Program-made: the position numbers and the translations under genes | In this document: positions 7,458-59,564 of the stretch, one piece after another | How positions within the stretch are numbered: position 1 is the first letter of the stretch | Layout of the letters: each line of letters starts with the position of its first letter | NCBI GenBank assembly: GCA_018380195.1 | Contig: JAGZUC010000003.1 | Location: forward strand, 55,769 to 119,768 | Direction of reading: 5' to 3' | DNA length: 64,000 bases | Source of the DNA: Collinsella sp. | Lineage (GTDB): Bacteria > Actinomycetota > Coriobacteriia > Coriobacteriales > Coriobacteriaceae | Notes under the pieces: generated by a model | Database searches by the model: none | What the model was told of the DNA's origin: nothing | Seen by the model: only the letters and a program-made list of their open reading frames with translations

Positions 7458-7471
7458 GATGAGGGGATGGG

Positions 7472-26266: not shown

Positions 26267-26342
26267 GTGCGACCTTTCAAAACCAAAGGTGAATCAATCG
26301 TTCGAACGTCAAACTATCAGCCAATTCGATCGGCTGAGTCAA

Positions 26343-28460: not shown

Positions 28461-28521
28461 CTCGATTACCCCTTTCATCAGCCAAACACAACAGGCCAAA
28501 AGCCCGGCAACGAGCCCCAGA

Positions 28522-28560
28522 CCCAAAAAGCCTCCCGCACGGCAACGCCCCGCGGGAGGC
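28522..28560 (-). terminator. intrinsic terminator downstream of focA
   Basis: GCCTCCCGC-N13-GCGGGAGGC followed by TTTTTGGGTC on the minus strand. Confidence 0.75.
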
Positions 28561-28582
28561 CCAACATCAAACAGACGGTACC

Positions 28583-29422: not shown

Positions 29423-29461
29423 GTCAATCACTTCTTTCCTAATCAGCAGGGACAAGCGCTC

Positions 29462-31329: not shown

Positions 31330-31331
31330 GG

Positions 31332-32048
31332 TTACTCCTCCTTCGTATCAAAATCCATGATGATGCCTTCGACCGGTGCAGGACCGGCGGGAATCTCGGG
31401 CGCATCGGGGTTGAGCTCGCGGTCGACATACTCCGGGTTCACGCCGTGGCCGCCCAAATACTCCATGCCGGGGCCCTGGGGCTCACCGGACGCAAGCGTC
31501 TCGTTGGCAGCCATGCCGCGCGCGTTGCCGGTCTTTACGGCCGAGGCGGCGCGCAGGGCGTCGAGCTCGCGCTTGCACTCCTGGCACATACCGACGGTAC
31601 GGGCAGCCTGCTCGGCCTCCATGCCGCCGGCCTTTTGCAGCAGGCGCTTGGCGTAGTCGATCTCCTTGTGCGGGGCGAACGGCTTGCCGCAGCGCGAGCA
31701 GTGCTCGAGCGTATAGACGCTCTTGCTGGTGAGGTCGTCCTTGCTCATGACGGCCAGCTCAAACTCCTCGGTGAGCTTGATGGCCTCCATGGGGCAGGCT
31801 TCCTCACAGCGGCCGCAAAAGATGCAGCGGCCGTAGTCGATCGACCAGGTGATGGTATCGGCCGCAAGGTCGGTGTCCATGCGAATGGCATCGGCCGGGC
31901 ACGCCACGCCGCAGGCACCGCAGGCGATGCAAAGCTCGGCATTGTGCTCGGGCTTGCCGCGCATGTCCTTGTTGGTGGGGAACGGCGCAAACGGGTACTT
32001 GACCGTCGCGTCGCCGGCCTTGGCGTTAACCTTCCAAAGCTTCAGCAT
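31332..32048 (-). CDS. hyfH: formate hydrogenlyase 2x[4Fe-4S] ferredoxin subunit (HycF/HyfH)
   Basis: Two CxxCxxCxxxCP motifs. Start at MLKLWKV, just after the hyfG stop, with GAGGAGG upstream. The track ORF extends 41 codons further with no support. Confidence 0.8.
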   Translation of the reverse strand: MLKLWKVNAKAGDATVKYPFAPFPTNKDMRGKPEHNAELCIACGACGVACPADAIRMDTDLAADTITWSIDYGRCIFCGRCEEACPMEAIKLTEEFELAVMSKDDLTSKSVYTLEHCSRCGKPFAPHKEIDYAKRLLQKAGGMEAEQAARTVGMCQECKRELDALRAASAVKTGNARGMAANETLASGEPQGPGMEYLGGHGVNPEYVDRELNPDAPEIPAGPAPVEGIIMDFDTKEE

Positions 32049-32049
32049 A

Positions 32050-33822: not shown

Positions 33823-33825
33823 TCG

Positions 33826-35385
33826 TTACTCCACCTCGCTCTGAGCGGTCTCGGTACCGAACACAGCGCGGTACATCGGCGTCGCGTGAAGCTCCTCGGT
33901 GCTCTGCTCGAGCACGATGCCGGTCGCGGTCTCCACACCGTGCACGAGAGGCAGCGGGGTGGCGATGCCAAACCACAAGATCATGACAGCCAGGATGATT
34001 TCGGGAATAAGCATGAGCGCCGGGGCCTCATGCTTGCCCATGCCCTGGGGCGCATGGCCGAACACCGACTTGAGTGCGATGCGGGTGAGCGCGGAGATGG
34101 CCACGGTAAGACCGAGGGCGACCACGACGACCAGCCACATGGGACCGGCGGTGACACCGGCGACAAAAGTCAGGAACTCGGAGATAAACATGCCAAAGGG
34201 CGGGAAGGCACCAAGACCGAGCAGTGCCAAGATGGCGAGCGCGGCGGTTGCGGGGGCAACCTCGACGACACCCTGAATCTTAGCCAGGCTACGCGTGCCA
34301 AAGGCGTGCTGGATGTTGCCGGACACGCAGAAGGCAAGCGTCTTGGTAAAACCGTGGAACACGCAGTGCAGCAGGGCTGCGGCGATACCCAGCGGGCCAC
34401 CGATACCCAGGCACAGGGCGATAACGCCCACGTTCTCCACAGACGAGTACGCAAAGCGGCGCTTGAGGTCGTCCTGGCGAAACATCGAAAGTGCCGCCAC
34501 CAAAATGGACAGCGTGCCGACGATCAACAGCAAAAGTTGCGGATACTCGGCGCCCACGGCCTGGATGGTAAAGCCGTAGAAGCGCATGATCACAAGCATG
34601 GCGCACTTAAGCAGCACGCCAGAGAGCAGGGCCGAGACAGGGCTCGGGGCCTGGGAGTGGGCATCGGGCAGCCAGGTGTGCATGGGGAACAGGCCGGCCT
34701 TGGTGCCAAAGCCGATCACGATAAACGCAAAGGCGAGGCGCATGAGCGTCGGGTCGAACTGTTCGGCGTACGGCAGCACGCATGACAGGAATGCGGCCTC
34801 GTGGGCGTTGGGAATCACGTCGGCGGCGTTGGCGTAGATCAGCAGTGTACCGAACAGGCCGAAGGCCACGCCGGCGGTGCAGACCATCGCATACTTCCAA
34901 GAAGCCTCGAGGGCCGTCTTGTTCTTGTAGATACCCACGAGGAACACGGTGGAAAGCGTGGTTGCCTCCACGGCGGCCCACGTGAGGATCATGTTGTTGG
35001 ACAGGCACGCGAGCAGCATGGTGAACACGAACAGGCTAAACAGCGCAAAATACTGCTTGGCGCGCTCGGCGGGCATGGAGCCCTCCTCGATATCGGCCTT
35101 TACATAGGGCAGCGAGAACAGCCCCGTAAGAAAACCGATAAAGCCGATGAGCAGCACAAAGATGGCGCCCAGCGAATCGAGGTGAAACCACAGGCCAAGA
35201 GCGCTCGCGGTGTCGCCGCTCATAAGGACGTCGCCGGCCGTCATAATCGACAGCACCAGGACGGCTGCGACGGAGACCAGGTTGAGACCGGCAAACACGT
35301 TATAGGACGTGTTCTTGGGCAAAAATGCCATGACCAGCGAGAACGCCAAAGGAGTCGCGAGCAGGGCGAGAATCAACGTTTCCAT
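33826..35385 (-). CDS. hyfF: hydrogenase-4 membrane subunit HyfF (NuoN/antiporter-like)
   Basis: Polytopic NuoL/M/N-family pattern. Start overlaps the hyfE stop and has a GAGGGGG ribosome-binding site. Confidence 0.8.
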   Translation of the reverse strand: METLILALLATPLAFSLVMAFLPKNTSYNVFAGLNLVSVAAVLVLSIMTAGDVLMSGDTASALGLWFHLDSLGAIFVLLIGFIGFLTGLFSLPYVKADIEEGSMPAERAKQYFALFSLFVFTMLLACLSNNMILTWAAVEATTLSTVFLVGIYKNKTALEASWKYAMVCTAGVAFGLFGTLLIYANAADVIPNAHEAAFLSCVLPYAEQFDPTLMRLAFAFIVIGFGTKAGLFPMHTWLPDAHSQAPSPVSALLSGVLLKCAMLVIMRFYGFTIQAVGAEYPQLLLLIVGTLSILVAALSMFRQDDLKRRFAYSSVENVGVIALCLGIGGPLGIAAALLHCVFHGFTKTLAFCVSGNIQHAFGTRSLAKIQGVVEVAPATAALAILALLGLGAFPPFGMFISEFLTFVAGVTAGPMWLVVVVALGLTVAISALTRIALKSVFGHAPQGMGKHEAPALMLIPEIILAVMILWFGIATPLPLVHGVETATGIVLEQSTEELHATPMYRAVFGTETAQSEVE

Positions 35386-35388
35386 GGA

Positions 35389-36042
35389 CTACCCCCTCAG
35401 CTCGGACAGGTCGCGCGCATCGAGCGAGTGGGAGTCGTCCCAAATGCGACGCACGACGATGGACATGATGATGACGGCAAAGATGGCGTCGGTGGCGATA
35501 CCGATCTCGATGATCTCGGGAGCGGTGGGGGCCAAAAGCGCGAGCGTCACATGGCTGCCGTTTTCCATAAGGCAGTATCCAAAGATCTGCTTCATGATGT
35601 TGCGCTGCGAAATGATGCAGGTGAGGCCCACAAAGAAGTGAGCGAAGCTAATAGCGAGCGCAGGCGTTGCGACCTCGGCCGTGGGCAGGCTGATCTGCGT
35701 CACGACGGCAAAGCAGATCGCTACCTCGACGGCGATGATGCAAATGGCCCACGCGGGCTTAAGGCCGGCCTTGAGCGATGCGTCGCTCGGCTCACCCATC
35801 TTCTTGTATGCGCGGTTGAGGATATAAGGGACCAGGACGACCTTGGTGATAAAGGCAGATCCGGCCCACATAAGCAGCTCCTGCGCACCGGTGGTGGCAC
35901 CGAGCGTGGCGAGCAGCCCCACGAGCACCAGCGACTGCACTGCATACCAGCTGATGGCATGCTTGATGTTCTTGGAGACGACCACCATGGTGGACGTGAC
36001 GATCAGAAGGCCGCCAAGGATGTTGACGATCGAATAACCCAT
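35389..36042 (-). CDS. hyfE: hydrogenase-4 membrane subunit HyfE
   Basis: Small polytopic membrane protein in the Hyf position. AGGAGG ribosome-binding site. Confidence 0.75.
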   Translation of the reverse strand: MGYSIVNILGGLLIVTSTMVVVSKNIKHAISWYAVQSLVLVGLLATLGATTGAQELLMWAGSAFITKVVLVPYILNRAYKKMGEPSDASLKAGLKPAWAICIIAVEVAICFAVVTQISLPTAEVATPALAISFAHFFVGLTCIISQRNIMKQIFGYCLMENGSHVTLALLAPTAPEIIEIGIATDAIFAVIIMSIVVRRIWDDSHSLDARDLSELRG

Positions 36043-36055
36043 GTCGTTCTACCTC

Positions 36056-37513
36056 CTAACCGATCCAGCTGGCCGAAAGCGGGCCGCTGACGATGACCAT
36101 GATGATGAGCACGATGAACACGAATGCCATTGCCTTGGGGAGCGGTGCACCAGCGGCGACTTCCTCGCTCGGCTCGCCGGGCAGGCAATAGCCCATCCAC
36201 TTGAGGAACCAGGCGAAGGTGGCGACGGTCTCGGCAACCATGATGCACACGAGCACCAGGATCGCAACGTTGCCGGCACCAACAGAGAAGCCGCCGGCGA
36301 TGATCTGGAACTTCGAGAAGAACGTGTTCATGGGCGGCACGCCGGCAATGGCGAGCGCGGCGACACCAAAGCCCACGCCCGAGATCGGGTACTTCTTTAC
36401 GATGCCGCGAAGCTTGGGCAGCATACGCGTGCCGAGCGTGAAGGAGAACGAACCGGCGATCAGGAAGAACAGCGTCTTGGCGAAAGCGTGGTTAAAGATG
36501 TGGCACACGGCGCCATCAAAGGCCAGCTGGCTGCCAAAGACCGAAAGGCCCAGACCAAAGAACACATAGGAGAGCTGGGCGATCGTGGAGAAGGCCAGCA
36601 AACGCTTCACGTCCTTTTGCGGCAGGTACATAAGGAAACCAAAGAGCATGGTGACCATGGCGTCGATAATGGCGACCCAGCCCACGATCTCGGGAATCTC
36701 GCCGGCAGAGACAAGTGCACGCGCGAACACGCACACGCCGACCTTAACCATCGAGGCACCATGCAGGTAGGCCGAAACAGGCGTCGGTGCCTCCATGGCC
36801 GAAGGCAGCCACATGTACATGGGAACCTGTGCGGACTTGGCCCAGGCCGCAAACAGCACGAGCAAAAGGACGATAGCCTTGAGCTTGGCATCGAGGCCGG
36901 CAATCGCGGTAATGGCGAAGGTGCCGGTGTGGGCAAACACGATGGCAGCGCCCAGATACAGGCCGAGCGCACCGATATGCGTGATGATCAGGGCCTTCAT
37001 GCCGGCCTTCTTGGCCGTAGGCGTCATGTAGTAGCTAATGAGGCCCCAAGAGCACGCACCCGTGATCTCAAAGAACACGAGCTGGCCCAAAAGGGTCGAG
37101 CTGTACACGAGGCCGGCCATGGCGCCGATGAAGGTCGCGAGGTACGCGTAGAAGCGACGACGCGGCGCGTCGGGATGCTCACGGTTATTCTCGCTCATAT
37201 AGGGGATCGAATAGATCACGACAAGCAGGCCGATACCCACAAAGGCGGGCGCGAGCAGCGTGCTCATGCGATCGAAGGTGAATCCCATGACGAGGGTCTG
37301 CCCAAACGAGATCAGGGGGACCTGCGTGTCGGGCATGCCGGCGCCAGCGAAATTCGCGGCGAGGGCGATGGTGCAGACCGTCGAGACGGCGGCACCCAAA
37401 ACGCTGAACCACTTGGCGTACGGACGGGGGAACAGGGCGACGAGCACCGAGGCCACCATCGGGGCCGCGATAGCGACCAAGCCGAGAAGGGACAGACTGA
37501 CTGCAAATGACAT
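36056..37513 (-). CDS. hyfD: hydrogenase-4 membrane subunit HyfD (NuoM/antiporter-like)
   Basis: NuoM-like antiporter family pattern. GGAGAAGGGAG ribosome-binding site. Confidence 0.8.
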   Translation of the reverse strand: MSFAVSLSLLGLVAIAAPMVASVLVALFPRPYAKWFSVLGAAVSTVCTIALAANFAGAGMPDTQVPLISFGQTLVMGFTFDRMSTLLAPAFVGIGLLVVIYSIPYMSENNREHPDAPRRRFYAYLATFIGAMAGLVYSSTLLGQLVFFEITGACSWGLISYYMTPTAKKAGMKALIITHIGALGLYLGAAIVFAHTGTFAITAIAGLDAKLKAIVLLLVLFAAWAKSAQVPMYMWLPSAMEAPTPVSAYLHGASMVKVGVCVFARALVSAGEIPEIVGWVAIIDAMVTMLFGFLMYLPQKDVKRLLAFSTIAQLSYVFFGLGLSVFGSQLAFDGAVCHIFNHAFAKTLFFLIAGSFSFTLGTRMLPKLRGIVKKYPISGVGFGVAALAIAGVPPMNTFFSKFQIIAGGFSVGAGNVAILVLVCIMVAETVATFAWFLKWMGYCLPGEPSEEVAAGAPLPKAMAFVFIVLIIMVIVSGPLSASWIG

Positions 37514-37528
37514 TGTTTCTCCCTTCTC

Positions 37529-38455
37529 CTACACGCCGACGACCACGAAGACAAACGCCAGAACGGCGATGCCCACGACAGCCCAGGTCTGATTACCGAG
37601 TACCTTAAAACGCGAGCGCGAGCAGGAGTTCTCGATCACGCCGCATACGACAAAGTCGATCAGGCACTTCACCAGGAAGATGACGGCGCCCAGAACGGCG
37701 GCAGCGCCCATGGTCGCGGGCTCGCCCCAGGGGACGAAGATCGCGCAGAACCAGGCGACGACCAGGACCTGTTTCATAGACATGGCGAGCTTGGCCATGG
37801 CGAGCGACGGGCCGGAAAGCTCGGCGAGCGGACCTTCCTGAAGCTCCTGCTCGGCCTCGGCCTGATCAAACGGCAACTTGCCGAGTTCCATGTAGCAGGC
37901 AATCGCAAAGGCAATGCCGGCGAGGATCACGGCGACCGGCGCGTCGATGGCGCCCGTCATGATGTGCTGACCCATGGTGGCGATGTCGGTGGAGCCGCAC
38001 ACCAGGGCGGCGGCAAACAGCGCCAGCAGCATGGACGGCTCGATGAGCACGCTCATGAGCAGCTCGCGAACGCCGCCGATACCGGCGTAGGCGTTGGACG
38101 AATCCACACCGCAGAGGGCGAAGAAGAAGCGGGCGAGCGCCAGGCTGTACATGATGGTGATGGCGTCACCAAAGACCGGGATGGGGCTTTGTGCCGTAAA
38201 GAGCGGCAAGCCCATCGCGAGCATAAAGGCGACGGCGAAGAACAGCGGCGGCATGATGCGCAGCGCAAAGCTCGCATCCTCGCTCTGGGACTCGGGGCGC
38301 GCAAAGAGCTTGGCCAGGTCGCGGTAGTCCTGCATGATGCTGGGGCCGCGACGGTTGTGCATCTTGGCGCGGATCACGCGGCCGAGACCGGAGAAGAACG
38401 GAGCGACGGCCATGACGACCACGCCCTGCAGAACGGCAAGTACGATGTTGTTCAT
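37529..38455 (-). CDS. hyfC: formate hydrogenlyase membrane subunit HycD/HyfC (NuoH-like)
   Basis: NuoH-like helix pattern. AAGGAGGGGAG ribosome-binding site; start overlaps the hyfB stop. Confidence 0.82.
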   Translation of the reverse strand: MNNIVLAVLQGVVVMAVAPFFSGLGRVIRAKMHNRRGPSIMQDYRDLAKLFARPESQSEDASFALRIMPPLFFAVAFMLAMGLPLFTAQSPIPVFGDAITIMYSLALARFFFALCGVDSSNAYAGIGGVRELLMSVLIEPSMLLALFAAALVCGSTDIATMGQHIMTGAIDAPVAVILAGIAFAIACYMELGKLPFDQAEAEQELQEGPLAELSGPSLAMAKLAMSMKQVLVVAWFCAIFVPWGEPATMGAAAVLGAVIFLVKCLIDFVVCGVIENSCSRSRFKVLGNQTWAVVGIAVLAFVFVVVGV

Positions 38456-38467
38456 GCTCTCCCCTCC

Positions 38468-40486
38468 TTAACCCATTTGCACGGCGAGCACGAGGAACAC
38501 CACGAGTGCCGCGACGATATAGCAGATATAGATGCTGTAGTTGCCGCCCTCGAGCTTAGTCGCGAGGTCGGCGAGCTTCTCGACACCCTTATGCGGGGCA
38601 TCGACGAGAACCTTGTCGGGTACGGGCTCCACAGCCTCGGCCACACCGGTGAGCTTCTGGAAGAAGTGCGCGATGGACCAGCAGACGGCCGTGCAGCGGT
38701 CGCGCAGCGTGTAGAGCGGCTGCATAAACCAGGACACCTCGGAGGCAAAGGTCGTGGCCACGACGGGCATATGCTCGTTGGGAGCATAGCCGCATGCCCA
38801 CGGCTGGGACTTTTGCACCTTACCGACGGTCTTGAGCTTGCGATAACCGCAAGCAAGGCCGACAAGCACCACGAGCGCAATGGCGATCGCGGGCGTGGAG
38901 GTGGCGGCGCCGGAGTACTGGTTCATGAGCTCCATGCCCTCGGCGGCAAACACGCCACCGTACGGATGCAACACGGACGCGGCGACATCGACCAGCACAG
39001 GCGCGATCACGGGAGCGCCAATGCCCAGCACGACGCAGATGGCCGCAAGCAGCCCCTGCGCAAACACCATGGGGGCGGGAACCTCCTTGGCATTGGCCGC
39101 GGCCTCGGAGCGGGGCGCGGAGGCAAAGGAGACACCATAGGCCTTGACGAAGCACGTAACAGCCAGCGCGCCGGTAATGGCAAGCGCGACGGCAGCGAAC
39201 ACGGCCACGATCATGACGGCCTTGTCGCCCTGCATGGCGGCGTTAAACAGCGACTGGTAGGTAAACCACTCGGACACAAAGCCGTTGAAGGGCGGGATGG
39301 CCGAGATGGCAAGCGCGCCAACGAGGAAGCAGATGGCCGTTGCCGGCATACGACGGAACAGGCCGCCCATCTTCTCCATATTGCGCGCACCCGTGGAGTA
39401 CAGCAGCGCACCGGCGCCCAAGAACAGCTCGCCCTTAAACATCGCATGGTTAAACGTGTGGTAGAGGGCGGCCATCAGGGCCAGGACGGCGATGCCGACA
39501 GAGTTGAGCGCCATGGCGGCCATGGAAGCGCCGACGCCGAGCAGAATGATGCCGATGTTCTCGACGGAGTGATAGGCCAGCAGGCGCTTGATGTCATGCT
39601 CCTGCAGGGCGAAGGCCACGCCGAGGACCGACGAGATCGCACCGAAGACCATGACCATAAGGCCCCACCAGACCTGAACGCCCGAAGCAGAAAGCAGGTC
39701 GAGACCAACCTTGAGGATACCGAAGATACCGATCTTGATCATGCCGCCGGACATGAGGGCCGACACGTTGGACGGCGCCTCGGGATGTGCCTTGGGCAGC
39801 CAGCCGTGCAGCGGGATGATACCGGCCTTGGCGCCAAAGCCAAAGAAGGCGAGCACGAAGCACACGGATGCGACCGCGGGGCTAAACTGCGTGGCACGGA
39901 AATCCGCAAAGGCAAACGAGCCGCCGGCGAAGTTGGTCATGGTGAGGAAGCTCGCCATGATGAGCACAAAGCCCACGTGCGCGATCACAAAGTAGAGCCA
40001 ACCACCATGGATGGAGTTCTCGTTCTCCTCGATTACGACCAGGAAGTACGAGGTCAGCGACATAAGCTCAAAGGCGACCAGGAACCAAAACACGTTGTCG
40101 GCTGTGATGACGAGCATCATGGAAGCCACGAAGGTGTTAAAGAAGAAGCCGGCGCGGCCCTTTTTGCCCGGGTACTCATCAAAGTAGTTGAGACCGTAGA
40201 TCGAACCGGCAAACGCGAGCACCGAGATGAGCGCCACGAACAGGCCGGACAGCTGATTGAGCAGCAGCTGGAAATGGGCAAACGGGAAAAACACGATGGT
40301 GTCGACCGACGTGACATCGCCCAGCACGGCCTGGATACCAGCCACAAACGAAAGCACCGCGGCGACGGCGCCGATAAGGCAGCCGGCGGTCTTGGCGGCG
40401 TTATCGGCCTTGATCAGCAGAACCGAGGCGAGCGCACCGATGCACGAGACGGCAAGCGATGCGATAAACAGCGTCATGCTATCCAT
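38468..40486 (-). CDS. hyfB: formate hydrogenlyase membrane subunit HycC/HyfB (NuoL-like)
   Basis: 672 aa antiporter-like protein. Start overlaps the hyfA stop; GAAGGGAG ribosome-binding site. Confidence 0.85.
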   Translation of the reverse strand: MDSMTLFIASLAVSCIGALASVLLIKADNAAKTAGCLIGAVAAVLSFVAGIQAVLGDVTSVDTIVFFPFAHFQLLLNQLSGLFVALISVLAFAGSIYGLNYFDEYPGKKGRAGFFFNTFVASMMLVITADNVFWFLVAFELMSLTSYFLVVIEENENSIHGGWLYFVIAHVGFVLIMASFLTMTNFAGGSFAFADFRATQFSPAVASVCFVLAFFGFGAKAGIIPLHGWLPKAHPEAPSNVSALMSGGMIKIGIFGILKVGLDLLSASGVQVWWGLMVMVFGAISSVLGVAFALQEHDIKRLLAYHSVENIGIILLGVGASMAAMALNSVGIAVLALMAALYHTFNHAMFKGELFLGAGALLYSTGARNMEKMGGLFRRMPATAICFLVGALAISAIPPFNGFVSEWFTYQSLFNAAMQGDKAVMIVAVFAAVALAITGALAVTCFVKAYGVSFASAPRSEAAANAKEVPAPMVFAQGLLAAICVVLGIGAPVIAPVLVDVAASVLHPYGGVFAAEGMELMNQYSGAATSTPAIAIALVVLVGLACGYRKLKTVGKVQKSQPWACGYAPNEHMPVVATTFASEVSWFMQPLYTLRDRCTAVCWSIAHFFQKLTGVAEAVEPVPDKVLVDAPHKGVEKLADLATKLEGGNYSIYICYIVAALVVFLVLAVQMG

Positions 40487-41096
40487 TGTTTACGCTCCCT
40501 TCTGCTTTCTCGGACAAACCCTGGGCCACAGCGGTAACGTCGACGGACGGACCGTTTTCGATCGAGCGCAGGCGCTTGGCCTCGTCGAGTTCGCGATCGG
40601 CCGCGCCGCCCATGACGGTCAGCGCCTTGGTGGGGCACGCCGCCACACAATGCGGGCCGTCCGGATCGAAGGCGCACAGGTCGCACTTGACGGCGCAGGT
40701 GTACTGGCCAGGAGCCCACGTAAGCAGGCTGCTCAGGGACTTAGGATACGAAGGTGTCGGGTCGCACATGCCTGCGACACCGGCGATAGACGTGCCATCG
40801 GGATGGATGGCACCGAAGGGGCACGCGATGGCGCACAGCCTGCACCCGATGCACTCCTGCTCCTTGACGTGGATGCGGTCGCCATCGTGCTCGATGGCAT
40901 TCACCGGGCAGACCTCGGCGCAGGGGGCACCCTCGCAATGGTGGCAGGCAAGGGCGGCCGAAATACCACCGGTCTTCACGAGCGCCAGGCGCGGCGTATC
41001 CTGAAGACCCTGCATCCGGTGGGCGTCGGCACAGGCGGACTGGCATGTTCCGCAGCCGATGCACCTCTCCGGGTTGATGTCGATGAAGCGGTTCAT
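40479..41096 (-). CDS. hyfA: 4Fe-4S ferredoxin-type subunit (HycB/HyfA)
   Basis: Four Cys clusters collinear with E. coli HycB. ATG of MNRFIDIN, 5-6 nt after AAGGAAG. Confidence 0.85.
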   Translation of the reverse strand: MNRFIDINPERCIGCGTCQSACADAHRMQGLQDTPRLALVKTGGISAALACHHCEGAPCAEVCPVNAIEHDGDRIHVKEQECIGCRLCAIACPFGAIHPDGTSIAGVAGMCDPTPSYPKSLSSLLTWAPGQYTCAVKCDLCAFDPDGPHCVAACPTKALTVMGGAADRELDEAKRLRSIENGPSVDVTAVAQGLSEKAEGSVNNG

Positions 41097-41111
41097 CCCC
41101 ACTTCCTTTCA

Positions 41112-41174: not shown

Positions 41175-43397
41175 CTACACGATTTGATTCACGTGCGTCT
41201 CGTCGTCGAACTTGGCGGCGCCGGGCTCAACGTCCTGAGGAGCGGCGGCGTCCACCAGAGCCTGCTTAAGCTCGGTGTACTGACGCTCGACCTCGCCCTC
41301 AGCCCAGACCTGGTCGGCGATAGCGTCGACCTGGCAGGCGGAGAACTTGTCCTCGGGCGTATGCGAGACCGGGTCGACCTTGTGAATGGTCAGCTCGTTG
41401 CACTTGCCAATCCACCACTGGTAGGTCATATAGACCGTGCCCTTGTTGATACGGTCGCTCACGTCGGCGCGGCTGTATACCTGGCCGCGGCGGCTGTGAA
41501 TCGAGACGATGTCGCCGTTCTTGATGCCGCGCGCCTGGGCGTCCGCGGGATTCATGCGGACAAAGCCGGGCTCGTCGGCGAGCAGCGCCAGCGTCTTGCA
41601 GTTGCCGGTCATCGAGCGGCAGCTGTAGTGGCCGACCTCACGGACGGTGCACAGGATGAGCGGGTACTCATCGTCGGGAAGCTCGGAGGGCGCCTCCCAG
41701 TCGTGCGCCATCAGGTTGGCGCGGCCGTCCTTGGTGGTGAACTTGCCACCAGCGAACATGTCGGCCGTGCCGTGGTCGTTCACATCGGTGCTCTTGACGG
41801 GCCACTGGGCGTAACCGCCCTCGGGAGCCATCTTCTCGTAGGTTGCGCCCACAAAGTTGGGGCACAGGCTAATGCACTCGTTCCAGATCTGCTCGGTGTT
41901 GTCGTAGTGCATGGGGTAGCCCATGCGCGTAGACAGGTCCGCGAAGATCTCCCAGTCGTGGCGGCACTCGCCCTTGGGCGGAACAGCCGCGTCAAAGTGC
42001 TGGAAGCTACGGTCGGATGCGGTAAAGACACCCTCGTGCTCGCCCCAAGAAGTAGCGGGCAGGATGACGTCGGCGAGCATAGTCGTCTGCGTCATAAAGA
42101 TGTCCTGGCAAATGAACAGATCCAGCTCGGAGAGCGTCTTGCGCATGCCGGCCGAATCGGGCTCGGTCTGCACCGGGTCCTCGCCGTAGTTGTAGAAGCA
42201 ATGCACCTTGCCCTCGTCGACCAGGTGGCCCAGGTCGGTGAGCTTGTAGCCCTCCTCCAAGGGGAGCTTTTCCTCGGGCACGCCCCAAGCCTTGGCAAAC
42301 TTGGCGCGAGCGGCGGGGTCGGTGACTTTCTGGTAGCCAGGGTACAGGTTGGGCAGCATGCCCATATCGCAGGAGCCCTGGACGTTATTCTGACCGCGCA
42401 CGGGCGCGAGGCCGGAATTGGGTTTGCCGATCTGGCCGGCAACGCAGGCGATGGAGGCGATGGTGTGCACCGTCTTCAGGTTCTGCTTCTGCTGGCATAC
42501 GCCCATGCCCCAGCCAATGATGGCAGAGGGCTTCGCCGTGGCGTACATCTCGGCAGCTTGGTGGATCAGCGCGGGCTCGACACCCGTGATGTCCTGTACA
42601 GATTCGGGAGTGTAGTTCTTGATGGTCTCCCACCACTCGTCAAAGCCGTTCGTGTGCTCGGCGACGAATTCCTTGTCGTAGAGGCCATCGTTGACCAAGC
42701 AGTTGGCAAAGGCGTTGAGGAACGCAACGTTGCAACCGTTCTTGATCGGAAGGTAGAGATCGGCGATACGCGCGGTTTCGATATGGCGCGGATCGGCGAC
42801 GATGATCTTGCAACCCTTTTCTTTGGCTCGCACGATACGCCTTGCGACGATGGGGTGCGAATCGGCAGGGTTATAGCCGAAGAGGAAAATGCAGCCCGCA
42901 TCCTCCATACCGGGGATGGAGCATGACATGCAACCTGAACCAACCGTGTCCATCAGACCGAGGACAGTAGGGCCGTGTCAAGTACGGGCGCAGTTGTCCA
43001 CGCTGTGGGTGCCGATGCACGCACGCGTAAACTTCTGCATGACGTAGTTCGCCTCATTGCCGCCGCCTCGCGAGGAGCCGGTGGTCATGACAGCGTTAGG
43101 ACCATATTCGTCAATTATGGCCTGCATCTTAGATGCGGTGAAATCCAGTGCCTCGTCCCAGCTTACGCGCTCAAGATCCGCGCCCTTAGTGCGGCGGATC
43201 ATCGGGTGCAGTACGCGAGGAGTCAAGATCTTGGTGTCGTTGATGAAGTCGTAGCCGCTCATGCCCTTAAGGCACAGCTCGCCCTGATTGGTGATGCCGT
43301 TGAGCGGTTCGGTACCCACGACCTGGCCGTTTTGGACCAGGAGGTTAAACTGGCAACCGGCGCCACAATACGGGCAGATCACTTTATGCTTCTCCAT
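41175..43397 (-). CDS. fdhF: formate dehydrogenase H, selenocysteine-containing (in-frame TGA at 42978-42980)
   Basis: The track ORFs 41175-42953 and 42978-43505 lie in one frame, separated only by a TGA. Translation across it reads VDNCART-U-HGPTVLGL, which matches E. coli FdhF VDNCARV-U-HGPSVAGL. N-terminal CPYCGAGC [4Fe-4S] motif. Start at MEKHKVICPYC with AAGGAGG upstream. Confidence 0.88.
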
Positions 43398-43420
43398 GAC
43401 ACCCTCCTTCCTTTCTCTGC

Positions 43421-43436
43421 TACCGATTAATCGGTA
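43421..43436. promoter_or_regulatory. perfect 16 bp palindrome TACCGATTAATCGGTA upstream of fdhF, next to a TTGACA hexamer
   Basis: Seen directly in the 76 bp gap between the ferredoxin gene and fdhF. Confidence 0.4.
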
Positions 43437-43473
43437 CGTATTTGACAATCGTTGGGCCTGTATGGCCGCCCGC

Positions 43474-43992
43474 CTACGCCTCGTTTTCGATGGTGGCGCG
43501 GGCACGCTCGGCGGTTAGTTCCGCCAGGCGCTCCTCGTCTACCAGGGTGAGGCCCTTGGTCGGGCACGCCTCGGCACACGCCGGACCGCCGGGACGGTCC
43601 ACGCACAGGTCGCACTTGAGCACGAAGCTCTTAGTCTGCGAACCCACGCGCACGTCGCCCATCAAGACGGGGACCTGCGTGGTCGCCACGCTCACGGCGC
43701 CAAAGGGGCAGGCCATGACGCAGCTCTTGCAGCCGATGCAGTTGTCCTCGTTAACACCGATGCGATGGTTCTTTGGATCAAAGAACAAGGCACCCGTGGG
43801 GCAGGCCTTGGCGCACGGGGCATCCTCGCAGTGATGGCAAGCCACCGGTGCGGAGATCTCGTAGGTGCGCGTTACGCGCAAGCGAGGTGCGGCGATGTTG
43901 CCGGGAATATCGTGTGCCTCGATGCACGCCGCCATACAGGTTTGGCACCCAATGCAACGTGAGGAATCGGCTACGACTCGTTTATTGCCCAT
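43474..43992 (-). CDS. 4Fe-4S dicluster ferredoxin-type protein (HycB-like), first gene of the formate hydrogenlyase operon
   Basis: Multiple CxxCxxCxxxCP motifs. Start at MGNKRVV with AGGAGGGAG upstream. The track ORF extends 36 codons further with no support. Confidence 0.8.
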   Translation of the reverse strand: MGNKRVVADSSRCIGCQTCMAACIEAHDIPGNIAAPRLRVTRTYEISAPVACHHCEDAPCAKACPTGALFFDPKNHRIGVNEDNCIGCKSCVMACPFGAVSVATTQVPVLMGDVRVGSQTKSFVLKCDLCVDRPGGPACAEACPTKGLTLVDEERLAELTAERARATIENEA

Positions 43993-44170
43993 GTTGTTCA
44001 CTCCCTCCTGAATCCCATGCCGGAGAGACCCTGCCGACGTTGCCCCGGACCGCCCGTGGTCCGGCATCGGCGTATCGAGTGCATGCGGCGAAACAGGCAC
44101 TTCGATAGAATTCCTCCAACGATATACAGGTTAAATATACGCAGTTGCAGGTGGCAAACTTGAGCATACG

Positions 44171-44196: not shown

Positions 44197-44419
44197 GTTT
44201 TAGCAGGTTGGAACTATTCTCGGATAGCTATAAAGGTGAGTGTATTACATGCGTACGCCTCAGAGATTTTTACGCGCTCTCGTTTTGGATGCACTACGCC
44301 TGTATTCGTGTTTATGGTTATCAACTTGAGTGAAATAAAGTAATCGTTATAAGATGCTCAAGTATCGGCACATGCCGCATTTGACCGACTATATTGCACG
44401 CTCATTAAGGGGGCCAGTG

Positions 44420-44743
44420 ATGTCATCGACTCAAAAAAGAGCCATCCTGCAGGTGCGCATTCGCGAGGAAGACAAGCAGCATGCCGAGCATCTCTACGAT
44501 GCCATGGGCACATCGCTCGCCGAGGCTGTCCGCTTATTTGTCGCGCAAAGCATTTTGATGCGCAAGCTCCCCTTTCAGCCGGTCGCCGTGCGCTCAAAGA
44601 ACGGCACCGCCGCCTATGGATCGCTCAAAGCATATGGTGACCCCAATCGCCGCTCCGAAGAGCGCAATGCCTGGATTGAGTACCTTGCCACAGAAAGCGA
44701 CGATTCGATTTTGGGTCCCGAGGAAGTAGATATCCATGAGTAG
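44420..44743 (+). CDS. type II antitoxin, RelB/DinJ family
   Basis: N-terminal ribbon-helix-helix (RAILQVRIREEDKQHAEHLYDAMGTSLAEAVRLFVAQSI) resembling DinJ. AAGGGGG ribosome-binding site 6 nt upstream. 8 nt overlap with the downstream gene. Confidence 0.7.
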   Translation: MSSTQKRAILQVRIREEDKQHAEHLYDAMGTSLAEAVRLFVAQSILMRKLPFQPVAVRSKNGTAAYGSLKAYGDPNRRSEERNAWIEYLATESDDSILGPEEVDIHE

Positions 44744-45191
44744 CACCATCATCGACGAGACCGTCATCCTGCGCTACCTGCTTGACGACGACGAGGTTCT
44801 GTCACCGCGCGCCGCCAAGGTCATCGCCACGCGCACCGCTCGCGTCTACCCCGAAATCATCACGCGCGTCGTGGTCACACTGCGCGACGTCTATAAGGTT
44901 CCCCGCGTTGAGATTACTGCGGCCATGAAGAGGTTGCTCGATGACGTCATGGTCGACGAGCCCACCGTTGTCGCCCTTGCCGTCAAACTCTTTGGCAAGA
45001 CCCATATGGACTTTACCGACTGCCTCCTCGCAGCCCGAACCGCCATCTACAACGATGATGTCGTGAGCTTTGGCAAGCCCATCATCCAAGGCATGATCGA
45101 TTACCGCCACAAGCGCCAAACCGCAGCCGAAGCCCGCAGCCGAAGCACCGACTCCACCATCGACAAGCTCCGCCACCAATCCCGCCACTAA
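44736..45191 (+). CDS. putative PIN-domain toxin (VapC-like)
   Basis: Acidic residues spaced as in PIN domains (IIDETV, YPEI, DFTDCLLAA, NDDVV). Overlaps the antitoxin gene in the usual toxin-antitoxin arrangement. Assignment by pattern only. Confidence 0.5.
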   Translation: MSSTIIDETVILRYLLDDDEVLSPRAAKVIATRTARVYPEIITRVVVTLRDVYKVPRVEITAAMKRLLDDVMVDEPTVVALAVKLFGKTHMDFTDCLLAARTAIYNDDVVSFGKPIIQGMIDYRHKRQTAAEARSRSTDSTIDKLRHQSRH

Positions 45192-48356: not shown

Positions 48357-49496
48357 CTAGCAGGCTAAATCGCGCAAAGCGTCAATCGCGGTGTCGACTT
48401 CCTCGTCCGTGTTGAAATACCCAAACGAGAAGCGAACGACACCCTGGCGCTCGGTCCCCAGCGCACGGTGCATGAGCGGGGCGCAATGGGCGCCGGGGCG
48501 CGTCGCAATCCCCCGCCCTTGCATGAGTGCATCCGAGATCTCTGCAGAGTCGATATCGCCCACGTTGAGCGACACAATCGCAGAGCGCGTCGGTTGGTCA
48601 AACGCACCGTAGAGCTTAATCCCCGGAATCTCGCACACGCCGGCAAGGAAGCGTTCAGCGAGCGCACGCTCGTGCGCCGTAATCGCCTCGACCCCGCCCT
48701 GGGCCTCGATAAAGTCGAGGCCGGCAGAAAGGCCGGCGATACCGTGGCCGTTGAGCGTGCCCGCCTCCAGGCGCGTGGGCCACTCAAGCGGCTGCAGCGC
48801 ATCGAAGCTGTGCACGCCTGTGCCGCCCATGGCCCACGGCGCCACGTCAATGCCCTCCGCCACGGCCAGCCCGCCGGTCCCCTGCGGACCCATGAGGCCC
48901 TTGTGGCCAGTAAAGCACACCACGTCGAGCCCCATGGCCTGCATATCGATATGCGCCGTGCCGGCAGACTGCGAGGCATCGACAATCACAAGCGCGCCGG
49001 CCGCATGGGCCATGGCGGCCACGCGCGCAATGTCGACCTCATTGCCGGTCACATTGGAGGCGTGCGTCACCACCACAGCACGCGTGGCCGGCGTGACCAA
49101 CCGCTCGAGCTCGTCATAGTCGAGCACGCCGTTCGCGTCGCAGCCCGTATGCTCAACGGTAACACCCTGCTCTGCCGCCAAGCGGTTGAGCGGACGTAGC
49201 ACCGAGTTGTGCTCAAGCACCGTCGTGACCACGCGGTCGCCGGGGCGCACCACGCCATTGATAACGGTGTTGAGCGCCGCGGTGGAGTTGGGCGTAAAAC
49301 ACACATGGTCCGCCCTCGGGCAACCCAAAAGGCGCGCGAGCTTGGCACGGCAAGCGTGAATCGTACGAGCGGCATCGAGGGGACCCGACGTGGCGCCGCG
49401 CCCGGCATTGCCGAGCGAGCACATCGCCTGCGTCACGGCATCGATGACCGTCTGCGGCTTGTGCATGGTCGTCGCCGCGTTATCCAGATAGATCAT
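48357..49496 (-). CDS. class V aminotransferase: cysteine desulfurase / selenocysteine lyase family
   Basis: PLP fold with HK motif (TGHKGLMGPQG) and a C-terminal active-site Cys region (GAHCA). Start at MIYLDNAATT. Overlaps the upstream stop. Confidence 0.8.
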   Translation of the reverse strand: MIYLDNAATTMHKPQTVIDAVTQAMCSLGNAGRGATSGPLDAARTIHACRAKLARLLGCPRADHVCFTPNSTAALNTVINGVVRPGDRVVTTVLEHNSVLRPLNRLAAEQGVTVEHTGCDANGVLDYDELERLVTPATRAVVVTHASNVTGNEVDIARVAAMAHAAGALVIVDASQSAGTAHIDMQAMGLDVVCFTGHKGLMGPQGTGGLAVAEGIDVAPWAMGGTGVHSFDALQPLEWPTRLEAGTLNGHGIAGLSAGLDFIEAQGGVEAITAHERALAERFLAGVCEIPGIKLYGAFDQPTRSAIVSLNVGDIDSAEISDALMQGRGIATRPGAHCAPLMHRALGTERQGVVRFSFGYFNTDEEVDTAIDALRDLAC

Positions 49497-49744
49497 CGCA
49501 CGACCTCCCACATATCAATCACGGTATAGCCCTCGGTGGGAACACCCGCCTCGGCGAGTTCGCCGCGCAGCAGTTCCTCATCGGCAGGCAACGCCTTCCA
49601 CGCCAGACCGCAGCCGGCAGCGACCTCCCCGGGCACGGGAATCGTTCGCCCGGGAAGGCCGCGCTCGATGCACAGGGACTCGCAGCCCATGGCGGCCGCC
49701 GTGGTGGGAAACGTGATGACAAGCGCCGGGCGCTTCTCCCTCAT
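49493..49744 (-). CDS. DUF3343-like small protein (putative Se/S carrier)
   Basis: Paralogous to the C-terminal half of the 21403-21798 product. Start at MREKRP with TTGGAGTTGCC upstream. Confidence 0.6.
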   Translation of the reverse strand: MREKRPALVITFPTTAAAMGCESLCIERGLPGRTIPVPGEVAAGCGLAWKALPADEELLRGELAEAGVPTEGYTVIDMWEVVR

Positions 49745-49763
49745 GGCAACTCCAACCAATACG

Positions 49764-50390
49764 CTACGGGCGCACGACGCGCACGGCCTGCTCCATCTTC
49801 TCCACGATCACGTACATGTTGGTGACCTCGCCCACCGCAAGCTGGTCTTTAATGCCATAGTGGTCGAGGCAGGTACCGCAGGTAAGAATCTCGACACCCT
49901 GCTCGGCCAGGCCCTTCAGGTCATCGAGCACCGGCGAGCCCTCGACGGTGAGCTTGGCGCCGCCGTTGTAGAACAGCATAGTCGCGGGCAGCTCCTCCTG
50001 CTGCGTCACGGCAAAGATAAACGCCTTCATGAGCTTGTGGCCCAACTCGTCGTCGCCACGGCCCATGCAATCGGTGTAGACGGAAATGACGAGTTTGCCC
50101 TTGCCGGCGCTGGCGTCGCAAAAAGCAACACCGTCCTGCTCGGGGTCCGCAACGGCCACGGCACCGGCGGTCACGACAGTCACGTGCCACTCGGCGTCCG
50201 AGACCTTCTCGACCGAGGCCGTGCAGCCCTTCTCCTGCGCCATCTTGGAGATGTTCTTGACGGCGGTCTCGTTATCGACCGCAGTCACGACGGCGCCCTC
50301 GCCATTAAGCTGTTTGAGTGCCTTAAGCGTCTTGACGACGGGCAGCGGGCAGGCATCGCCCATGGCATTGACTTCAATTTTGGTAGACAT
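49764..50390 (-). CDS. yedF: YedF-like selenium metabolism protein (TusA-like N-terminus, DsrE-like C-terminus)
   Basis: N-terminal CPxP motif (AMGDACPLPVV) and a DsrE/DsrF-like C-terminus. GAAAGGA ribosome-binding site. Confidence 0.75.
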   Translation of the reverse strand: MSTKIEVNAMGDACPLPVVKTLKALKQLNGEGAVVTAVDNETAVKNISKMAQEKGCTASVEKVSDAEWHVTVVTAGAVAVADPEQDGVAFCDASAGKGKLVISVYTDCMGRGDDELGHKLMKAFIFAVTQQEELPATMLFYNGGAKLTVEGSPVLDDLKGLAEQGVEILTCGTCLDHYGIKDQLAVGEVTNMYVIVEKMEQAVRVVRP

Positions 50391-50447: not shown

Positions 50448-51497
50448 TTAACGGACAACGCGAACGGCAGGACCACCTGGCACCGGCACGCACACGCGAC
50501 CGACGACGGCGGCGATACGTCCTTCAGCATGTAGACGGCACGCAAGCTCATCAACATCGGCAGCAGGTGCCGCGATGAGTAGGCCACCAGACGTCTGCGG
50601 ATCGTACAGCGCATCCAGCATGCCCGGCTCCAGATCCTCGTCGGCAGCCACACGCGGGCCAAAGAAGTCCTGGTTGCGGTAGGAGCCCGCGGGGATAATG
50701 CCCAGACGCGCCATGTCGAGCACCTGATCAAAGAGCGGCACCGATCCCGACGCAAGCTCAACTTGCACGCCCGAGCCCTCGGCCATCTCGCACGCGTGCC
50801 CGATCAGGCCAAAGCCCGTAATGTCGGTGCAGCCGTGAAGTTCGAGCCCCTCGGCCAGACGAATCGGCGCCTCGTTGAGGGTGCGCATCGAGTCAAACAT
50901 GGCTGCGGCCTCGTCCTGCTCGATAAGCTCGCCCTTAATGGCCGTGGTGATGATGCCCGAGCCGATCGCCTTGGTCAGCAGCAGAACATCGCCCACGCGT
51001 GCGCCGCTGTTAGCGAGCATGCGGTCGAGCGCGACAAAGCCGCTCACGGACAGGCCGTACTTGGGCTCGTCGTCGTTGATGGTATGGCCGCCCGCGATGG
51101 AGCAACCCGCCTCGACGCACTTGTCGGCGCCGCCCGCCAGAATCTGACCGGCAACCTCGATGCCCAGACAACTGGGTATGCAGAGTAGGTTCATGGCATG
51201 GCTCGGCCGCCCGCCCATGGCGTAGATGTCCGACAGCGAGTTGGCCGCGGCAATCTGGCCAAACAGAAACGGGTCGTCGACCATCGGCGGGAAGAAGTCG
51301 ATGGACTGCACAAGCCCCAGGTTCTCCCCTACGCGGAAGACGCTCGCATCGTCAGAAGTATCGAACCCCACGAGCAAGTTGTCGTTATGCACATTTGGCA
51401 AGTCGCCCAGGACCTGGGCGAGGGCTCCAGGAGCCAACTTAGCGGCTCAACCGCTCGCGGCCGTCATAGACGTGAGCTTAATCTGATGGTCAGCCAT
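50448..51497 (-). CDS. selD: selenide, water dikinase, selenocysteine-containing (in-frame TGA at 51447-51449)
   Basis: The track ORF starts at MAPGALAQVL and lacks the conserved SelD N-terminus. Reading upstream in frame through a TGA gives MADHQIKLTSMTAASG-U-AAKLAPGALAQVL, which matches the E. coli [21 protein letters not shown] region with Sec at the Cys/Sec position. GAGAGGAGG ribosome-binding site 6 nt before the ATG at 51497. A GGCUCCUGGAGCC hairpin lies 11 nt after the UGA. Confidence 0.85.
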
Positions 51498-56484: not shown

Positions 56485-56487
56485 GGC

Positions 56488-57930: not shown

Positions 57931-57998
57931 GAAAAGCTCCAAGCGAATACAAGGACGGAGTGAAACACAAAACGATGGAATTATCGCGCCAAGCCGCA

Positions 57999-59554: not shown

Positions 59555-59564
59555 AGCATTCCCC

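Follow-up and report, generated by a model that had tools for sequence, protein, structure and literature searches.

The in-frame UGA codon of a Collinsella fdhF gene in a formate hydrogenlyase operon is almost certainly read as selenocysteine

Introduction

Does the TGA that interrupts a formate dehydrogenase gene of Collinsella end the protein or encode selenocysteine (Sec), and, if it encodes Sec, which RNA structure accompanies it? FdhF is the founding bacterial selenoprotein, and a fdhF UGA serving as a Sec codon is ordinary and already known. Two selenoproteins were attributed to Collinsella aerofaciens as early as 2007 (PMC1976440). The gene studied here lies in the window, the whole stretch of 64,000 nucleotides analysed, which originates from Collinsella aerofaciens or a close Collinsella species. 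A preliminary description of this DNA had joined two open reading frames across the TGA and proposed a SECIS-like hairpin downstream of it.

Results

The gene and the codon in question are:

41175–43397, minus strand: fdhF coding sequence (FdhF catalytic subunit), from ATG at 43397 to TAG at 41175–41177
42978–42980, minus strand: UGA codon 140, almost certainly read as selenocysteine, aligned to Sec140 of E. coli formate dehydrogenase H (FDH-H)

The two open reading frames (42978–43505 and 41175–42953, both on the minus strand) share a common frame, as had been described, and the sole interruption between them is the TGA at 42980–42978. No frameshift was present, homology formed one aligned stretch across the TGA, and similarity to FdhF was strong on both sides of it. 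The gene consists of 740 codons including the TGA, with a terminal TAG, and its start codon is preceded by an AAGGAGG Shine-Dalgarno sequence 7 nt upstream. The junction reads SVDNCART-(TGA)-HGPTVLGL, identical to the earlier reading, with a predicted Sec peptide of SVDNCART-U-HGPTVLGLMDTVGSGCMSCSIPGMEDAGCIFLFGYNPADSHPIVAR. The merged protein gave a single collinear match to NCBIfam TIGR01591, the model for formate dehydrogenase subunit alpha (828.4 bits; cutoff 666.25), in which residues 6–690 covered model positions 1–672 of 672. Alignment of the merged 740-aa protein to E. coli FDH-H (PDB 1aa6), a check proposed at the outset, spanned residues 2–718 with 56% identity over 717 columns (E = 8.4e-281) and placed the TGA on Sec140 (X = Sec in E. 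coli), followed by His141. The Arg333 motif PVRGQNNVQG and four N-terminal 4Fe-4S cysteines (C8, C11, C15, C42) are also retained. The collinearity with E. coli that had been suggested therefore stands, although the E. coli motif quoted for it, VDNCARV, does not; the actual sequence is NVDCCARV-U-HGPSVAGL. On sequence grounds the merged protein is FdhF, the Sec-containing catalytic subunit of formate dehydrogenase H. In many public assemblies standard gene callers cut this gene into products of 139 aa and 592 aa.

Codon 140 was TGA in 80 of 80 Collinsella genome assemblies, and 106 of 118 metagenome contigs carried, letter for letter, the 57 nt that begin 3 nt ahead of the UGA; because of this recurrence the TGA is no sequencing error. 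These scans of genome contigs and metagenome DNA patterns were dominated by near-identical Collinsella and contributed about 10 new diverged SECIS sequences. Diverged Coriobacteriia retain the TGA, and Cys-type homologues carry TGC at the same position. Across the 80 assemblies fdhF contained 337 variable sites, 301 of them at third-codon positions, with both halves of the gene varying almost only there; 41% of third-codon positions in the whole gene varied. By this substitution pattern, fdhF is under purifying selection and is not decaying.

The genes for Sec synthesis and decoding in the window are:

22605–22697, minus strand: tRNA-Sec (selC), anticodon UCA
22845–24827, minus strand: selB, Sec-specific elongation factor
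24809–26293, minus strand: selA, selenocysteine synthase
50448–51497, minus strand: selD, selenophosphate synthetase, itself a selenoprotein with an in-frame TGA at 51449–51447

The Sec-decoding set (tRNA-Sec, selA, selB, selD) is thus complete. The tRNA was identified by Rfam RF01852 (64.6 bits; gathering 47) and by ARAGORN (tRNA-SeC, tca), SelB by TIGR00475 (281.6 bits; cutoff 242) and SelA by TIGR00474 (516 bits; cutoff 268). SelB contains a C-terminal SECIS-binding winged-helix domain (Pfam SelB-wing_3, residues 614–648) and also Beta-barrel_SelB. The view that selD is a further UGA-Sec gene was borne out: the merged protein matched TIGR00476 with 360.6 bits (cutoff 125) and reads MADHQIKLTSMTAASG-TGA-AAKLAPG, an SG-U-AAK motif. 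An alternative genetic code was rejected on two grounds: TGA serves as the stop codon of three genes, selA among them, and the window contains tRNA-Sec, selA and selB. As a stop codon TGA is very rare in the window (62% G+C), ending three of 47 genes (selA, a Mo enzyme gene and a Se/S carrier gene). An in-house GC3 scan of the window for other in-frame TGA genes returned off-frame shadow ORFs only and was discarded as a selenoprotein finder, since it missed both true cases, fdhF and selD.

fdhF leads a formate hydrogenlyase operon of the hyf type that also contains focA, hycH and hycI:

43474–44100, minus strand: HydN/HycB-like 4Fe-4S ferredoxin gene upstream of fdhF
40479–41102, minus strand: second HydN/HycB-like 4Fe-4S ferredoxin gene, between fdhF and hyfB
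29462–40486, minus strand: hyf-type formate hydrogenlyase genes hyfB, C, D, E, F, G, H and I, then hycH and hycI
28583–29461, minus strand: focA, after hycH and hycI

The hyf, hyc and focA genes were assigned by NCBIfam matches and the second ferredoxin gene by a profile match. In the first ferredoxin HydN-like matches cover residues 39–204, and its true start is probably near 43992; relatives also carry a ferredoxin gene at the equivalent position upstream of fdhF. HyfG, the large subunit, is of the Cys type, with motifs CGIC and DPCYSC. A Sec-type group 4 hydrogenase large subunit, recently described elsewhere (PMC13582414), was considered and set aside, HyfG having Cys at both motifs. The presence of hyfB-I, hycH, hycI and focA directly downstream would fit formate oxidation coupled to a hydrogenase, and formate hydrogenlyases have been reported in gut Coriobacteriaceae (PMC12578642). 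A single 40-kb neighbourhood holds selABCD, yedF, molybdate transport and molybdenum cofactor genes, focA and hyf, almost all the components for formate-derived H2.

A candidate SECIS element was drawn from the minimum-free-energy fold and sequence comparison, with the U of the UGA numbered 1:

42933–42983, minus strand: predicted SECIS region, an extended hairpin including the UGA
42955–42959, minus strand: predicted apical loop G22 G23 U24 C25 U26, formed from the Gly-Leu codons GGU CUG, the presumed SelB contact

The predicted lower helix pairs C6-C10 (42975–42971) with G36-G40 (42945–42941), and the predicted upper helix of 7 bp pairs U15-C21 (42966–42960) with G27-A34 (42954–42947), leaving U29 bulged. 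An outermost helix of 6 bp (42983–42978 with 42938–42933) is poorly conserved. The GGUCU loop begins 18 nt past the UGA. The bacterial SECIS consensus (the Zhang and Gladyshev model, per PMC13188914) requires a loop of 3–9 nt, an upper stem of 4–16 bp, G at the first two loop positions, a distance of 16–37 nt from UGA to loop and a minimum free energy of at most -7.5 kcal/mol. The candidate agrees with this consensus in its 5-nt loop, 7-bp upper stem with one bulge, G22 G23 and 18-nt spacing. Its predicted minimum free energy was -18.2 kcal/mol over 54 nt and -6.7 kcal/mol for the 24-nt upper hairpin alone. Fold stability did not exceed that of shuffled sequence (z = +0.28), and thermodynamics alone therefore gives no support for the hairpin.

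Evidence from sequence comparison was positive, though modest. Among 20 distinct Sec-type sequences 82.9% of cells paired, compared to 15–42% in slid registers, a level reached by none of 500 shuffles. The covariation score was matched by 10 of 500 shuffles, with pair 19:30 alternating between C-G and G-U; this covariation is modest, since two-sided changes were limited to three pairs in related sequences, one of which had supplied the tested structure. Nowhere else in fdhF do the 80 assemblies share as long an invariant stretch as the 62 nt from -5 to +56, which coincide exactly with the candidate. The loop Gly codon was GGU in all 20 distinct Sec-type sequences and GGC in all four Cys-type sequences, including Sec/Cys pairs from the same locus, and GGT is a minority codon, at 8–31% of the Gly codons of these genes. 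An Rfam scan of the whole window at gathering thresholds yielded no SECIS family. In a permissive local scan, the SECIS search that had been called for, the best matches were SECIS_3 (RF01989; 18.9 bits vs gathering 63) and SECIS_2 (RF01988; 16.5 bits vs gathering 70). Both models align to the candidate from end to end and keep the UGA and CACGGCCC in register, at scores too low for membership by Rfam's own criterion. It is very likely that a SECIS element lies 3' of the fdhF UGA, and that it differs from the hairpin first described.

The sub-threshold Rfam matches and the unremarkable fold energy would also be expected if recoding of the UGA needed no dedicated RNA nearby, or used a different structure, and the downstream conservation reflected protein constraint only. 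The peptide HGPTV(L/I/V)GL is indeed conserved in its own right, and RNAalifold on 10 sequences offers an alternative fold that pairs GACACGGC with GUCNUCGGUC. Protein constraint does not, however, account for the frozen synonymous positions, where GGU is kept instead of the preferred GGC and either ACU or GUU precedes the UGA, nor for an invariant run of 62 nt in a gene with variable third positions throughout, and in Cys-type paralogues other codons specify this peptide. In the window sequence the RNAalifold fold, an 8-bp hairpin between the UGA region and GGUC, contains a C-C mismatch, and it would place the invariant GGUC inside a stem. The structure of the E. coli fdhF SECIS is established by experiment, and the RNAalifold hairpin was not adopted because of the mismatch, the buried GGUC and this orthologous structure. 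We consider recoding without the candidate element highly unlikely.

A slimmer chance attaches to the hairpin of the preliminary description, in which the UGA would encode Sec and the functional SECIS would pair GUCUGA (42958–42953) with UCAGGU (42938–42933). The pairing itself is possible, all six pairs being formable in the window and 76.7% of cells pairing across 10 relatives; as a drawing of the SECIS it calls for correction, since the comparison prefers the fold with the GGUCU loop. Its 14-nt loop exceeds the 3–9 nt of the bacterial consensus (PMC13188914), two of its six pairs are disrupted in six of the 10 relatives, and it displays no covariation and no two-sided change, with shuffles performing equally well. 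In the minimum-free-energy fold ACUUGA is an equally good partner for the UCAGGU strand. A loop accounts for the invariant GGU CUG codons better than does a GUCUGA stem, which would enclose G23 and U24. SelB binding to the E. coli fdhF SECIS requires both of these loop bases.

That fdhF is instead a pseudogene or nonsense allele, inactivated or decaying behind a terminating TGA, has next to no probability: gene callers do yield the 139-aa and 592-aa products in many public assemblies and the selA, Mo enzyme and Se/S carrier genes of the window do end at ordinary TGA stops, but the TGA falls exactly on Sec140 of FDH-H and is kept by every assembly, the variable sites are concentrated at third-codon positions (301/337) in both halves, the full Sec machinery adjoins and diverged Coriobacteriia carry the same TGA.

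Discussion

We conclude with near certainty that in Collinsella aerofaciens or a close species UGA codon 140 of fdhF is read as Sec, with a SECIS element, in the context of a formate hydrogenlyase. FdhF would be the molybdopterin and 4Fe-4S catalytic subunit, with Sec140 binding molybdenum in the active site. SelA and SelD would produce Sec on tRNA(Sec), and the mRNA 3' of the UGA very likely folds, by analogy with E. coli, into a SECIS stem-loop with the GGUCU apical loop 18 nt past the UGA. As in E. coli, SelB carrying GTP and Sec-tRNA(Sec) would bind this loop by its C-terminal winged-helix domain and, again on the E. coli model, compete with release factor 2 in bringing Sec-tRNA(Sec) to the A site of the ribosome. 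Electrons from formate would pass from FdhF to the flanking HydN/HycB-like ferredoxins and on to the downstream Hyf-type group 4 [NiFe] hydrogenase, the three together forming a putative formate hydrogenlyase that would release CO2 and H2 from formate. Selenium incorporation at the UGA, SelB binding and enzyme activity are what we infer from this arrangement.

The main value of the result is annotation hygiene: fdhF should be annotated as a single 740-aa selenoprotein, and thousands of public metagenome records show it cut into pieces of 139 aa and 592 aa (the P0001 cluster alone has 8,777 members). Collinsella is an abundant actinobacterium of the human gut, and its formation of H2 from formate should require both selenium and molybdenum. 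In the loci compared, Collinsella has only the Sec FdhF and close relatives have a Cys paralogue beside the Sec form, and its formate hydrogenlyase may be wholly selenium-dependent. The SECIS of Coriobacteriia may be a lineage variant missed by the Rfam models, with a 5-nt GGUCU loop, a bulge on the 3' side and a fixed U before the UGA. The rarity of TGA stops (3/47 genes) could mean that the genome is tuned for low release-factor-2 competition at UGA. Taken together, these suggestions are unlikely to hold.

Comparison with Known Systems

Close counterparts are the Cys-type FdhF paralogues and orthologues of Coriobacteriia (P0004, P0013, P0044 from Berryella and P0067 from Denitrobacterium), which are 71–81% identical to the window protein and encoded at an equal operon position, between ferredoxin genes upstream of hyfB. 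They differ in having TGC for TGA, GGC CUN for GGU CUG, ACC for ACU before codon 140 and Ser for Thr at +4. Three loci (L084, L091, L092) contain Cys and Sec copies of fdhF together, and the Sec FdhF of L084 is 99% identical to that of the window; neither the window nor any of the 80 Collinsella genome loci showed a Cys-type copy.

The likeness to E. coli FdhF (PDB 1aa6/1fdo/7z0t) extends from the protein (56% identity over 717 residues, with the UGA at the same codon) to the RNA. A codon-for-codon alignment with the E. coli sequence on L081 places GGU CUG at +22 to +27 in both, so that the apical-loop bases G22 G23 U24 C25 arise from the same codons in the same register, and the lower helix from C6-G40 to C10-G36 is likewise shared. 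The predicted Collinsella loop is the 5-nt GGUCU closed by C21-G27, whereas E. coli has a 4-nt GGUC loop with A21-U26 as its closing pair. In the Collinsella prediction U17 pairs with A32 and the 3' strand bulges at U29; in E. coli the bulged base is U17 itself, on the 5' side. E. coli fdhF is a monocistronic gene at a distance from the hyc and hyf operons, whereas Collinsella fdhF comes first among the catalytic genes of a hyf-type operon, with two flanking HydN-like ferredoxin genes, near selAB and selC. The host also differs, being an actinobacterium (Coriobacteriia) with 62% G+C. In both organisms, the partner of FdhF is a group 4 [NiFe] hydrogenase.

Reading frame and identity of fdhF

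Two ORFs are called on the minus strand, 42978-43505 (175 aa) and 41175-42953 (592 aa), and direct reading of the sequence confirmed the preliminary description in placing them in one frame with a single TGA (42980-42978) between them. The junction reads AAC TGC GCC CGT ACT TGA CAC GGC CCT ACT GTC CTC GGT CTG ATG (NCART-*-HGPTVLGLM). The gene starts at an ATG (43397) preceded by AAGGAGG with a 7-nt spacing and runs for 740 sense codons including the TGA (codon 140) to a TAG stop (41175-41177), exactly the start and stop proposed earlier. The merged protein, searched with Cys put in at position 140, matched NCBIfam TIGR01591 (formate dehydrogenase subunit alpha) with 828.4 bits (curated cutoff 666.25) in one stretch, residues 6-690, across the TGA. 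The best solved-structure match was E. coli formate dehydrogenase H (FDH-H; 1aa6, 1fdo, 2iv2, 7z0t; E = 8.4e-281), with FdhF residues 2-718 aligned to residues 2-713 of the E. coli chain at 56% identity over 717 columns and the TGA coinciding with Sec140, which the deposited sequence gives as X. His141, the PVRGQNNVQG stretch that holds Arg333 and the four Fe-S cysteines were conserved; the E. coli motif quoted earlier was slightly off and actually reads NVDCCARV-U-HGPSVAGL. We regard it as a true FdhF-family gene that belongs to the Sec-decoding system of bacteria.

Conservation of the TGA codon

When one genome per GTDB species was scanned, 80 loci turned up with 99-100% identity at the protein level. 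Each belonged to Collinsella aerofaciens, to Collinsella sp. or to a Coriobacteriaceae MAG, mostly from the human gut, and codon 140 was TGA in every one. A DNA-pattern scan recovered an identical 57-nt stretch, starting 3 nt 5' of the UGA, in 106 of 118 usable metagenome contigs. This recurrence rules out a sequencing error or a strain-specific nonsense allele. Variable sites across the 80 sequences numbered 337, with 301 at third-codon positions, indicating purifying selection on both halves of fdhF. At 62 nt, the longest invariant run in the 2,223-nt gene covers positions -5 to +56, counted from the first base of the UGA.

Predicted SECIS element

The minimum-free-energy fold downstream of the UGA is an extended hairpin (U of UGA = 1), predicted as follows.

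Elements of the predicted fdhF SECIS (42933-42983, minus strand)
Outer helix: ACUUGA with UCAGGU
Lower helix: C6-C10 with G36-G40
Upper helix: U15-C21 with G27-A34, U29 bulged
Apical loop: G22 G23 U24 C25 U26

This fold agrees with the published bacterial SECIS consensus (loop of 3-9 nt, stem of 4-16 bp, G at the first two loop positions, spacing of 16-37 nt, MFE <= -7.5 kcal/mol; PMC13188914). Two other folds were considered. The hairpin drawn in the preliminary description (GUCUGA 42958-42953 with UCAGGU 42938-42933), which shares its 3' strand with our outer helix, can be drawn but is not the best candidate: its 14-nt loop lies outside the loop size of PMC13188914, and its helix displayed no covariation, with two of the six pairs broken in 6 of 10 sequences. 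A third fold, given by RNAalifold on 10 sequences, is unlikely as the SECIS: in the window it contains a C-C mismatch, and it disagrees with the structure established for E. coli. The reading of a Sec-coding fdhF with a SECIS is supported, with the hairpin redrawn as the extended fold.

The extended fold was no more stable than chance (z = +0.28; 111 of 200 shuffles folded at least as well). Comparative evidence was stronger. It drew on 20 distinct Sec-type sequences (TGA), consisting of Collinsella variants, at least eight diverged Coriobacteriia lineages (65-77% protein identity) and E. coli, together with four Cys-type homologues (TGC). Among the 20 Sec-type sequences, 82.9% of cells in the lower and upper helices could pair, compared to 15-42% when the 3' partner was slid by 1-3 columns, and none of 500 shuffles matched this value; the upper helix alone reached 87%. 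Positions 19:30 covaried (C-G, G-U, G-C, U-G), and A19 variants can pair with U29 instead. The covariation score was equalled in 10 of 500 shuffles, a modest support given the tool's own caveats about relatedness within the set and about testing a structure taken from one of its members.

Codon choice differed between the two forms. The Gly codon of the loop was GGU in 20/20 Sec-type sequences and GGC in 4/4 Cys-type sequences, a contrast that held in three relatives carrying both copies in one locus (L084, L091, L092), and GGU accounts for just 8-31% of the Gly codons in these genes. The following Leu codon was CUG in 19 of 20 Sec forms and variable in Cys forms. The base 5' of the UGA was U in all Coriobacteriia Sec forms (window 42981-42983 and relatives L082-L203), supplied by the rare codons ACU (4-16% of those for Thr) or GUU, and the Cys forms have ACC there; this U appears constrained, by context or by outer-stem pairing. 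These constraints, like the anatomy of the gene, are direct observations. Taken together, the invariant 62-nt run, the pairing and the codon contrasts show what reads, at the sequence level, as an RNA-level constraint present only when the codon is UGA, as a SECIS predicts.

Selenocysteine machinery and stop codons

The full Sec machinery lies inside the window.

Sec machinery genes in the window
22605-22697, minus strand: tRNA-Sec (Rfam RF01852, 64.6 bits; ARAGORN anticodon UCA)
22845-24827, minus strand: selB (TIGR00475, 281.6 bits; Pfam SelB winged-helix 3 domain, residues 614-648)
24809-26293, minus strand: selA (TIGR00474, 516 bits)
50448-51497, minus strand: selD (merged protein TIGR00476, 360.6 bits; in-frame TGA 51449-51447, motif SG-U-AAK)

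selD is itself a selenoprotein gene (MADHQIKLTSMTAASG-U-AAKLAPG). Its candidate SECIS is an 8-bp stem (UCGCCCAG/CUGGGCGA) with a GUC loop that starts 33 nt past the UGA, in a region folding somewhat better than shuffles (z = -1.84). The earlier count of two UGA-Sec genes, fdhF and selD, was right and agrees with the two selenoproteins on record for C. aerofaciens since 2007 (PMC1976440, Table 4). TGA is still a genuine stop in selA, in the Mo enzyme gene at 26343 and in the Se/S-carrier gene, so a changed genetic code does not explain the in-frame TGA codons.

A selenium-handling cluster adjoins selD, and its gene order is the same in L084.

Selenium-handling genes within 48357-50390, minus strand
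YedF (TIGR03527, 215 bits)
Se/S carrier-like protein (PF11823)
Cysteine desulfurase-family protein (TIGR01977, 415 bits, cutoff 377; SclA selenocysteine-lyase model, 352 bits, below cutoff 525)

Stop codons in the window (47 genes, 62% G+C) were TAG in 24, TAA in 20 and TGA in 3, unusual at such G+C. The same trend was seen in Coriobacteriia relatives (L082-L092; TAG 48, TAA 28, TGA 10 in 86 called genes, which are partly orthologous so that the counts are not independent). Our literature search found no published account of low TGA stop usage; that it is tied to Sec decoding through reduced competition from release factor 2 is pure speculation.

Genomic context

A HydN/HycB-like 4Fe-4S ferredoxin gene stands on either side of fdhF (43474-44100 and 40479-41102). 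Downstream come hyfB, C, D, E, F, G, H and I, hycH, hycI and focA, forming an operon for a formate hydrogenlyase of the Hyf type. Formate hydrogenlyases are already on record for gut Coriobacteriaceae, in a study that included C. aerofaciens when isolates were assayed for H2 production (PMC12578642). HyfG, the group 4 [NiFe] hydrogenase large subunit (32050-33825, minus strand), has Cys in both metal-binding motifs (CGIC in RICGICGCAH; DPCYSC in DPCYSCTDR); it does not belong to the Sec-containing group 4 variants reported in 2026 (PMC13582414).

A second molybdopterin oxidoreductase (751 aa; 26343-28598, minus strand) lies between focA and selA; its gene has no in-frame TGA, and its best NCBIfam match, a PhsA-like thiosulfate reductase, was far below cutoff. 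The surroundings hold many molybdenum genes (15890-19656, 21814-22596 and 55414-60836, all minus strand), including a xanthine-dehydrogenase-family molybdoenzyme with its FAD subunit, a modABC-like transporter, mog/moaB and moeA, and mobA is immediately next to tRNA-Sec. Upstream of the ferredoxin-fdhF-hyf operon, a small divergent gene of the RelB family and its partner ORF (44354-45191, plus strand) recur in several diverged relatives at that position (L083, L084, L085, L086, L090), which points to a conserved regulator and not to chance insertion of a toxin-antitoxin module.

Proposed mechanism

All steps are taken from the E. coli Sec-insertion paradigm. SelD would generate selenophosphate, with which SelA would turn Ser-tRNA(Sec) into Sec-tRNA(Sec). 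The C-terminal winged helix of SelB-GTP-Sec-tRNA(Sec) would bind the GGUCU loop, and UGA140 would be decoded by SelB in competition with release factor 2. Sec140 would then be a ligand of molybdenum in the bis-MGD cofactor, and electrons from formate would reach the Hyf hydrogenase through the 4Fe-4S cluster and then the HydN/HycB-like ferredoxins. By analogy one would expect selenium to be incorporated, SelB to bind and the enzyme to be active.

Comparison with known systems

The fdhF finding is correct and already known; its practical value is the correction of split gene calls. By score the window element is a member of no Rfam SECIS family, SECIS_3 and SECIS_2 matching in register far below threshold (18.9 vs 63 bits and 16.5 vs 70 bits). 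The predicted fold aligns with the fdhF SECIS of E. coli at every codon, both reading UGA CAC GGC CCN ... GGU CUG with GGUC at +22 to +25, and loop size and bulge side are predicted to differ; the RNA would work like the E. coli element. The E. coli sequence compared was the copy on metagenome scaffold L081, where 2533-4752 is a chimera. About the first 340 aa (51% G+C) are E. coli fdhF and the other ~400 aa (64% G+C) Collinsella fdhF, with the join in the conserved PVRGQNNVQG stretch. This chimera is almost certainly an artefact of assembly and accounts for the '85% identical' protein P0002 in the database.

Within the flanks examined, none of the 80 Collinsella loci carried a Cys-type copy. 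Three relatives carry both types, each copy with its own ferredoxin gene.

Loci with one Sec-type and one Cys-type fdhF
L084: 6753-8975 and 10001-12217
L091: 2510-4723 and 6001-8208
L092: 1431-3704 (minus strand) and 6001-8190

The L084 Sec copy has 99% protein identity to the window's FdhF, compared to 81% for its Cys copy. This interchange of Sec and Cys in close relatives, including adjacent paralogues, fits the dynamic evolution of Sec use already known in bacteria (PMC1794560).
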